A DNA stretch of 64,000 nt, taken from assembly GCF_024502345.1 (NCBI RefSeq), contig NZ_JALDNN010000001.1. One strand, 5' to 3'. The translations under genes were made by a program, and so were the position numbers. The DNA comes from Escherichia coli. GTDB taxonomy: Bacteria; Pseudomonadota; Gammaproteobacteria; Enterobacterales; Enterobacteriaceae. The notes under the pieces are model-generated. The model searched no databases, was not told where the DNA came from, and saw only the letters and a program-made list of their open reading frames with translations. Shown piece by piece: positions 16,781 through 17,370 of this stretch (position 1 is its first letter; every line of letters begins with the position of its first letter).

Positions 16781-17370
16781 CAATAGTATAAATTCACTAA
16801 AAACCCTTCACGGAGTTGGTATGCTGCGATGATGATTTCATCGCACTCTTTCCTCTGCTTCCCTATTAATTTCTGATGAAATGAGACTAAGTTGTAATAT
16901 ATTCTTACAAATTATAAAGCTAATGGAACAATTAACAGTAAAAAAGAAATGATATTTTTGTGTCTTGATTTAATATTGTTTGTGATGCTTTAATATTATA
17001 TCTTCAAAAAATACAATTTCAAAATTAATCTAAGATCGTCTTTTTTGTATACACTTCCCATAAATTTTAATTATGTAAAAGATGTTTTCTAAGCATTTTA
17101 TTTGTTTTTTATAAGTAAACTCTCAAAATTTCACCTTTTTGATAATATGTTAAGTGCTCCTTAATTCACTGTTAAGTAAATATAATTTGAAACAATAAAG
17201 ACAAAATATCACCATCCGCCCACACCAAAGAATATCTTCTTATGCGACCTATTTTCTTGTTAGTTAGATCGGATAGCTTATTCAATGGCTGGGTATAAAT
17301 AATTGCTATTGACTGAATCAATGTATTGCAATGTTTATATTTTTAATTATTTATGGTTTAAGGACAAATA

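Follow-up and report, generated by a model that had tools for sequence, protein, structure and literature searches.

A strongly diverged, AT-rich spacer upstream of yfcV in Escherichia coli as the probable H-NS-silenced regulatory region of the yfc fimbrial operon

The region described here lies within a 64-kb stretch of Escherichia coli DNA (the window), which carries on its plus strand fadJ, sixA and, after a spacer of 643 bp, the yfc operon (Table 1). The latter begins with yfcV, coding for a fimbrial subunit of 187 amino acids, and continues with an intact usher ORF. The annotation of a genome with 100% identity over positions 16700-17400 lists sixA, yfcV, the usher, yfcS, three minor subunits and an adhesin of the StfH/YfcO family. 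As a marker of uropathogenic E. coli, yfcV is in wide use, and Yfc belongs to the few fimbriae found in nearly all E. coli. The initial annotation had described about 590 bp between sixA and yfcV as the regulatory region of the operon. The length had to be corrected, since the start then chosen (16781) lies just past the T-tract that follows the terminator hairpin of sixA. The assignment itself was confirmed, as the stretch is located directly 5' of the operon's first gene, yfcV, and a conserved ORF is absent from it (six frames and ten alleles searched). An ORF of 49 amino acids on the minus strand (17172-17321) was rejected because it is lost in other alleles.

Table 1. Genes and sequence features of the sixA/yfcV region, in positions of the window
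Feature	Position	Strand	Remarks
fadJ	13895-16039	+	
sixA	16242-16727	+	
sixA/yfcV spacer	16728-17370		643 bp
sixA intrinsic terminator	16739-16781	+	14-bp hairpin 16739-16771, T-tract; terminator scan
Variable filler, unconstrained	16782-16956	.	Unalignable between allele classes, shorter in B2-type alleles
Distal conserved block	16957-17005	.	TTTGTGTCTTGATTTAATATTG ... TGCTTTAATATTATATCTTC; all allele classes and Pseudocitrobacter
Near-consensus promoter-like site, towards sixA	16995-17022	-	TTGAAA-16-TATAAT; 11/12 in scan
AT-rich spacer, diverged sequence, held length	17006-17186	.	About 21% G+C, no large indels
Candidate yfc promoter	17187-17215	+	-35 TTGAAA 17187-17192, 17 nt, -10-like CACCAT 17210-17215; from conservation; predicted start ~17222
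Helix H1 (putative), variable loop	17225-17288	+	CCA..GAAUA 17225-17234 with UAUUC..UGG 17279-17288; RNAalifold
Helix H2 (putative), allele-specific inner stems	17294-17339	+	UAUAAAUA 17294-17301 with UGUUUAUA 17332-17339
U-rich tract, Shine-Dalgarno sequence, start codon	17340-17373	+	AAGGA 17360-17364, yfcV ATG 17371-17373; nearly invariant
yfcV	17371-17934	+	187 amino acids
Usher ORF	18004-20655	+	Intact

The spacer has a G+C content of 27.7% in comparison to 50.7% for the whole window. This value decreases to 26.8% over 16781-17370 and to 21% over 16880-17200, and the region represents the minimum of the 64 kb for stretches of 590 bp as well as of 300 bp; merely 0.25% of the 300-bp segments within the 64 kb have 25% G+C or less. 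The very AT-rich character that had been ascribed to the spacer is thereby borne out. The second-lowest G+C content of the window (31-33%) is found at 8515-9665 between mlaA and fadL. In the related strain FDAARGOS_943 this interval contains a pseudogene and an IS1, and the window carries neither that IS1 nor the IS600 of this strain.

Beyond base composition, no specific signal stands out. The multiple A/T tracts described initially are real (16 of them with 4 or more nucleotides, 8 with 5 or more), but they are not in excess over composition (shuffles 13.7 +/- 3.1). A search for curved DNA and H-NS motifs, which had been suggested as a check, did not deliver a mark of H-NS. The H-NS nucleation motif TCGATAAATT (at most 2 mismatches) was observed 2 times, with 2.07 matches predicted by composition, and the phasing of AA/TT at 10-11.5 bp is not significant in the window allele (z 1.9). 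TpA steps are slightly fewer than composition predicts (67 against 78.6), and TANNNT hexamers, counted on both strands, amount to 54 per 590 bp against 57.6 expected. Elsewhere in the 64 kb this hexamer occurs 12.8 +/- 6.9 times per 590 bp, the spacer being the maximum. Together with six full promoter-like sites of the window allele that exceed local composition by more than 6 bits, this amounts to an unusually high density of such sites, covering both strands for 300 bp or more, as in promoter islands, when judged by TANNNT counts and promoter-like sites in place of the algorithm of the island authors. Of the properties by which H-NS targets are recognized, a stretch of several hundred bp with an A+T content far above the mean of the genome is present; an enriched nucleation motif or a phased A-tract curvature is not. 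Neither of the latter two is obligatory for H-NS binding. In the window allele it is composition alone that marks the region as an H-NS site.

For the K-12 allele of this spacer, direct observations have been published. It is listed as a promoter island of 489 bp (entry 2453647_489, one of 78) and was bound by H-NS in the Kahramanoglou as well as the Oshima data set (PMC3661553, Table 1 therein). Promoter islands are characterized by very many potential start points, almost without productive transcription (PMC3661553), although RNA polymerase binds to the K-12 islands as a class. Genomic SELEX in vitro with the RpoD holoenzyme revealed a peak within the K-12 spacer, for which the promoter TTGAAA-17-TATAGT was proposed and which is flagged 'HNS' in the corresponding table (PMC3946193), and a peak of the RpoS holoenzyme is located in the same spacer (PMC5493296). 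Furthermore, yfcV and sixA were scored as H-NS-bound in a ChAP-seq study of the strains K-12, SE11 and SE15 (PMC4720273, S2 Table). On the level of expression, over-production of TosR raised the yfcV mRNA by log2 5.2 in strain CFT073 (PMC5956150), and over-production of BolA likewise induces yfcV (PMC4337573).

The K-12 island (Panyukov and Ozoline 2013; Shimada et al. 2014) shares with the window the locus, the flanking genes, the AT-richness, a similar length of the spacer (680 bp in K-12 against 643 bp), dense promoter-like sites on both strands, and the same conserved blocks at equal distances from the ATG. It differs in sequence, as both spacers are 57% identical overall and the K-12 promoter TTGAAA-17-TATAGT has decayed to TTGTGT-17-TGTGAT in the window. 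Also the type of evidence differs: binding of H-NS and RNA polymerase was measured on K-12-type and other alleles and can only be extended to the allele of the window. The fimbrial operons yad, yeh, sfm, ybg, yra, elf and ecp likewise have AT-rich, H-NS-bound promoter islands upstream (PMC3661553). In the general statement on commensal E. coli given in PMC3559732, which cites Korea et al. 2010, chaperone-usher operons such as these are described as cryptic in laboratory culture and repressed by H-NS. The conserved blocks of the window, in contrast, belong specifically to the yfc lineage found in Escherichia and Pseudocitrobacter.

The view of the initial annotation, a cryptic operon silenced by H-NS, holds for K-12 as far as H-NS binding to the spacer is documented. 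For the window allele silencing is probable by analogy, and since this allele is only 57% identical to that of K-12, the transfer relies on composition. Overall, the published work on promoter islands, H-NS and SELEX in K-12 makes this the accepted view for the sixA/yfcV locus, and the initial interpretation is supported, being correct in essence and no longer new for K-12. We consider it quite probable that 16728-17370 comprises the cis-regulatory region of the yfc chaperone-usher operon (StfH/YfcO type) together with its 5' leader and is another allele of the H-NS-bound sixA/yfcV promoter island of K-12, for which we infer silencing by H-NS.

The spacer is highly divergent between strains. 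Among the alleles of the window, O157, K-12, MS14384, VE-T9 and ST131/M-17, the identity is 41-58%, with the exception of window and O157 (89%); for the same representative strains, sixA is 96-99% and yfcV 64-85% identical. The distal 470 bp of the spacer are not alignable to K-12 by BLAST. Among 5,426 complete E. coli genomes, 428 contain a spacer covering at least 80% of that of the window, and most match its last ~200 bp only, with about 85% identity. A second locus apparently sharing the leader (matches H18 and H19) was rejected, as it is the same locus in another allele. The divergence is not limited to the spacer. Identity to K-12 amounts to 97-98% in the flanks (up to 16750 and from 23926), and the whole yfc locus in between (16751-23925) forms a divergent cassette, in which the part from yfcV to the chaperone is 83% identical and the minor subunits and the adhesin are about 67% identical or unalignable.

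The operon has also been broken independently in several strains (L001, L004, L007 and L009). An internal stop is present in yfcU of K-12, an IS600 in the usher of FDAARGOS_943 and a frameshift in the usher of VE-T9, and in the soil isolate SC434 yfcV is missing along with the 5' portion of the usher. Within the window, a 10-bp hairpin rich in G+C, with a T-run behind it, is located between yfcV and the usher (17942-17965) and may be an attenuator setting the ratio of subunit to usher.

In contrast to the sequence, the base composition of the spacer is maintained. All ten alleles compared have a G+C content of 26-35%, and 67 distinct spacers from 88 metagenome contigs range from 25.9 to 35.5%. 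The spacers of E. albertii and Pseudocitrobacter fall within the same 26-35% (29.5% for Pseudocitrobacter corydidari), and 27% was found upstream of a 41%-identical homologue. The coding sequences next to it have a different composition, with 46-52% G+C for yfcV itself and about 47-52% for the adjacent yfc genes. It is therefore composition, rather than sequence, which is conserved, and this fits a silencer that reads composition. Regulatory spacers bound by H-NS were shown to evolve faster than unbound ones, and across 44 strains dN and dS amount to 0.128 and 0.597 for yfcV against 0.006 and 0.083 for sixA (PMC4720273). The present locus is an extreme case of this published rule (PMC4720273).

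Also the dimensions of the spacer are partly fixed. Its length ranges from 514 to 687 bp among alleles, and all of this variation occurs upstream of the distal block, which is positioned 402-419 bp from the ATG in all alleles. In Pseudocitrobacter corydidari (L018) and in a second, more distant homologue (L023), a yfc-like operon is located downstream of sspB and not of sixA. The former keeps the distal block, the promoter-like site and the leader blocks. Since the same blocks accompany the operon at this other location, the AT-rich upstream region appears to travel with it. L023 and a further homologue, L024 (41-43% protein identity), possess long AT-rich upstream regions in which the conserved blocks are absent, and for this reason they could not be used to extend the comparison.

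These observations also bear on another explanation, in which AT-richness and hypervariability are neutral by-products of a spacer drifting toward A+T with a recombining fimbrial cassette, without a role in silencing and with the ribosome-binding region and a minimal promoter as the only functional parts. The lack of motif, tract and curvature signals above composition would fit such a drift, as would the divergence of the entire locus between conserved flanks and the high diversity of the yfc genes, whose trees conflict with those from MLST (PMC4850163). However, drift does not readily explain why the G+C content stays at 26-35% in every allele, even downstream of sspB in Pseudocitrobacter and beside genes of about 47-52%, nor the fixed distance between distal block and ATG, and H-NS binding was measured at the orthologous spacer. 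We therefore regard neutral drift as unlikely and favor a silenced regulatory region.

Within this region, the alignment of alleles divides the spacer into variable and conserved parts, which supports the initial suggestion that it could hold uncharacterized regulatory sites. At the sixA end, a hairpin with a T-run, as typical for an intrinsic terminator, is kept in every allele by paired changes of the stem, for example CCCGATG/CATCGGG versus CCCAATG/CATTGGG, and its loop and flanks vary between alleles. As a T-run is also present past the hairpin on the minus strand, this terminator could act bidirectionally. Downstream of the filler, the distal conserved block aligns with the RpoD-SELEX promoter of K-12 (PMC3946193). 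A good plus-strand match at this position is restricted to alleles of the K-12, MS14384 and Pseudocitrobacter types. On the minus strand, overlapping the end of the block, the near-consensus site TTGAAA-16-TATAAT keeps its position in most non-B2 alleles (seven of nine alleles, 51 of the 67 distinct spacers) and is missing from the ST131 and VE-T9 alleles.

This divergent site could drive a small RNA, a possibility considered initially for the region as a whole. It would start at ~16988 on the minus strand and end after about 255 nt at the bidirectional sixA terminator (~16733). The near-consensus sequence of the promoter, its position kept in most alleles, the T-run beyond the hairpin and the fold of a 263-nt segment (z -3.65) would be in line with such a transcript. 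Nevertheless, the fold score derives mostly from the terminator. The part that would be transcribed shows the lowest conservation of the whole spacer, and some of it is deleted from B2 alleles and from those of E. albertii; its internal 8-bp hairpin (16825-16845) is broken in the O157 allele, and the promoter-like site itself is lost in ST131 and VE-T9. A permissive scan of 15800-18200 against Rfam 15 gave no match at gathering score; matches reached 20-30 bits, the best one 29.6 bits where 49 would be required, and were located on the terminator hairpin. No conserved product was found downstream of the site and no small RNA at this spacer is described in the literature found. A small RNA is for these reasons rather improbable, even more so than neutral drift, and this part of the initial annotation was not supported.

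For the yfc operon itself, the site TTGAAA-17-CACCAT would be the likeliest promoter, although its candidate -10 element begins with C and not with T and a stronger distal match, TTGAAA-17-TATAGT, is present in K-12. The -35 and -10 elements were chosen from conservation. TTG and CA..AT are invariant in an alignment of seven alleles, and TTGnnn-17-CAnnAT is found in 63 of 67 distinct spacers and additionally in E. albertii and Pseudocitrobacter. Of 58 distinct leaders, 55 have a distance of 17 nt between both elements, and the variable positions are those that sigma-70 tolerates. In the window allele, this is also the best plus-strand site by position-weight score. Readings of the conserved blocks as sigma-32 or sigma-54 promoters were dropped by eye, because the spacing is wrong.

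The leader downstream of the predicted start may fold into two helices, as suggested by comparison of the alleles, for which the covariation evidence is mixed. For H1, the conserved bases of the blocks CCAAAGAATA (17225-17234) and TATTCAATGG (17279-17288) are exactly the complementary ones, and 99.8% of the cells pair over 55 distinct leaders, compared to 15-42% if the partner is slid. All changes within H1 are one-sided, four kinds leading to G-U and one to A.C, and two-sided changes do not occur. This pattern leans toward a plus-strand RNA as the conserved entity, without being significant. For H2, 88.9% of the cells are paired over the 55 leaders and the helix is part of the minimum-energy fold of most alleles. 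Here, an A-U pair is swapped for G-C between allele classes. However, within the B2 class all four combinations of the key pair are found, A.C mismatches included, which indicates that selection for pairing of H2 is not strict. In an alignment of nine sequences, 93.8% of the helix cells are paired versus 40-47% when slid. These pair counts come from the same sequences from which the structure was derived, and they exclude three rearranged leaders from metagenome contigs (L047, L037 and L137), in which unrelated sequence replaces part of the yfcV leader by natural rearrangement or as an assembly chimera. The full leader of the window allele folds no better than its shuffles (z 0.07).

The sequence AATCAATGTATTG (17316-17328), lying inside the loop of H2, fits the IHF core consensus WATCAANNNNTTR, and its occurrence is limited to the allele group of the window, O157 and K-12. 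Downstream of H2 the conservation is strongest. The sequence TTTAAGGACAAATAATGAGTAAGTT is identical in all alleles as well as in Pseudocitrobacter, and the first codons of yfcV are conserved along with the U-rich tract and AAGGA. Stem-loops at the very 5' end, for example in the ompA leader, are known to stabilize mRNAs. If transcription started at ~17222, the 5' end would be 3-4 nt away from the beginning of H1, a position similar to that of such protective hairpins. In contrast to the ompA type, H1 is a candidate deduced from conservation and complementarity.

Many fimbrial operons are phase-variable and two GATC sites (17034 and 17267) are present in the spacer; nevertheless, a phase switch, either invertible as fimS or based on Dam/Lrp methylation as in pap, is close to refuted and the least probable reading, since inverted repeats flanking a segment of ~300 bp beyond chance AT-rich matches, a recombinase gene and papI/papB-like ORFs are lacking in or beside the spacer, and the GATC sites are 233 bp instead of ~102 bp apart. 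Of these sites, the distal one is absent even from O157, although this allele is a close one, and MS14384, VE-T9 and ST131 lack the proximal one. That no inverted repeats of an invertible switch are evident had been stated from the outset, and indeed perfect ones above 10 nt are confined to the hairpin of the sixA terminator, whose two arms they form. Other, longer inverted repeats of the spacer are imperfect, AT-rich and not kept in the 89%-identical O157 allele, and direct repeats were found as chance-level AT-rich matches only. The papI-papB intergenic region of pap is likewise a long region ahead of the major-subunit end, with promoter-like sites facing opposite ways. In contrast to pap, the spacer of the window contains neither the papI and papB genes nor a conserved GATC pair with the correct spacing.

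For a region silenced by H-NS, the following mechanism can be envisaged. H-NS would polymerize on about 450 bp of DNA with 21-27% G+C and occlude RNA polymerase, or trap it at the many -10-like sequences of the AT-rich tract. By this, the conserved weak promoter would be suppressed together with the incidental promoter-like sites, the divergent one included. Once silencing is relieved, yfcV would be transcribed from the conserved site TTGAAA-17-CACCAT, and the resulting leader of ~149 nt may fold into the hairpins H1 and H2 ahead of the U-rich and strongly conserved ribosome-binding region. Both hairpins might then affect the stability or the translation of the mRNA, which would be a control after transcription. 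Accepting this, a weak promoter, an H1/H2 leader that controls stability or translation of the subunit mRNA, the distal block and the divergent promoter would be the skeleton that survived a near-complete turnover of the spacer in Escherichia and Pseudocitrobacter. This proposal is tentative, and we would place it somewhat below an even chance.

The main finding is an ordinary one, as another fimbrial promoter region, probably silenced in the manner of H-NS and already catalogued in K-12, was encountered. The analysis adds the extreme divergence of the spacer between strains, the absence of a specific H-NS or curvature signal and the short list of conserved sites. Alleles of about 50% identity narrow the 643 bp down to blocks that can be mutated, namely the candidate promoter, the two candidate helices, the distal block and the divergent promoter.
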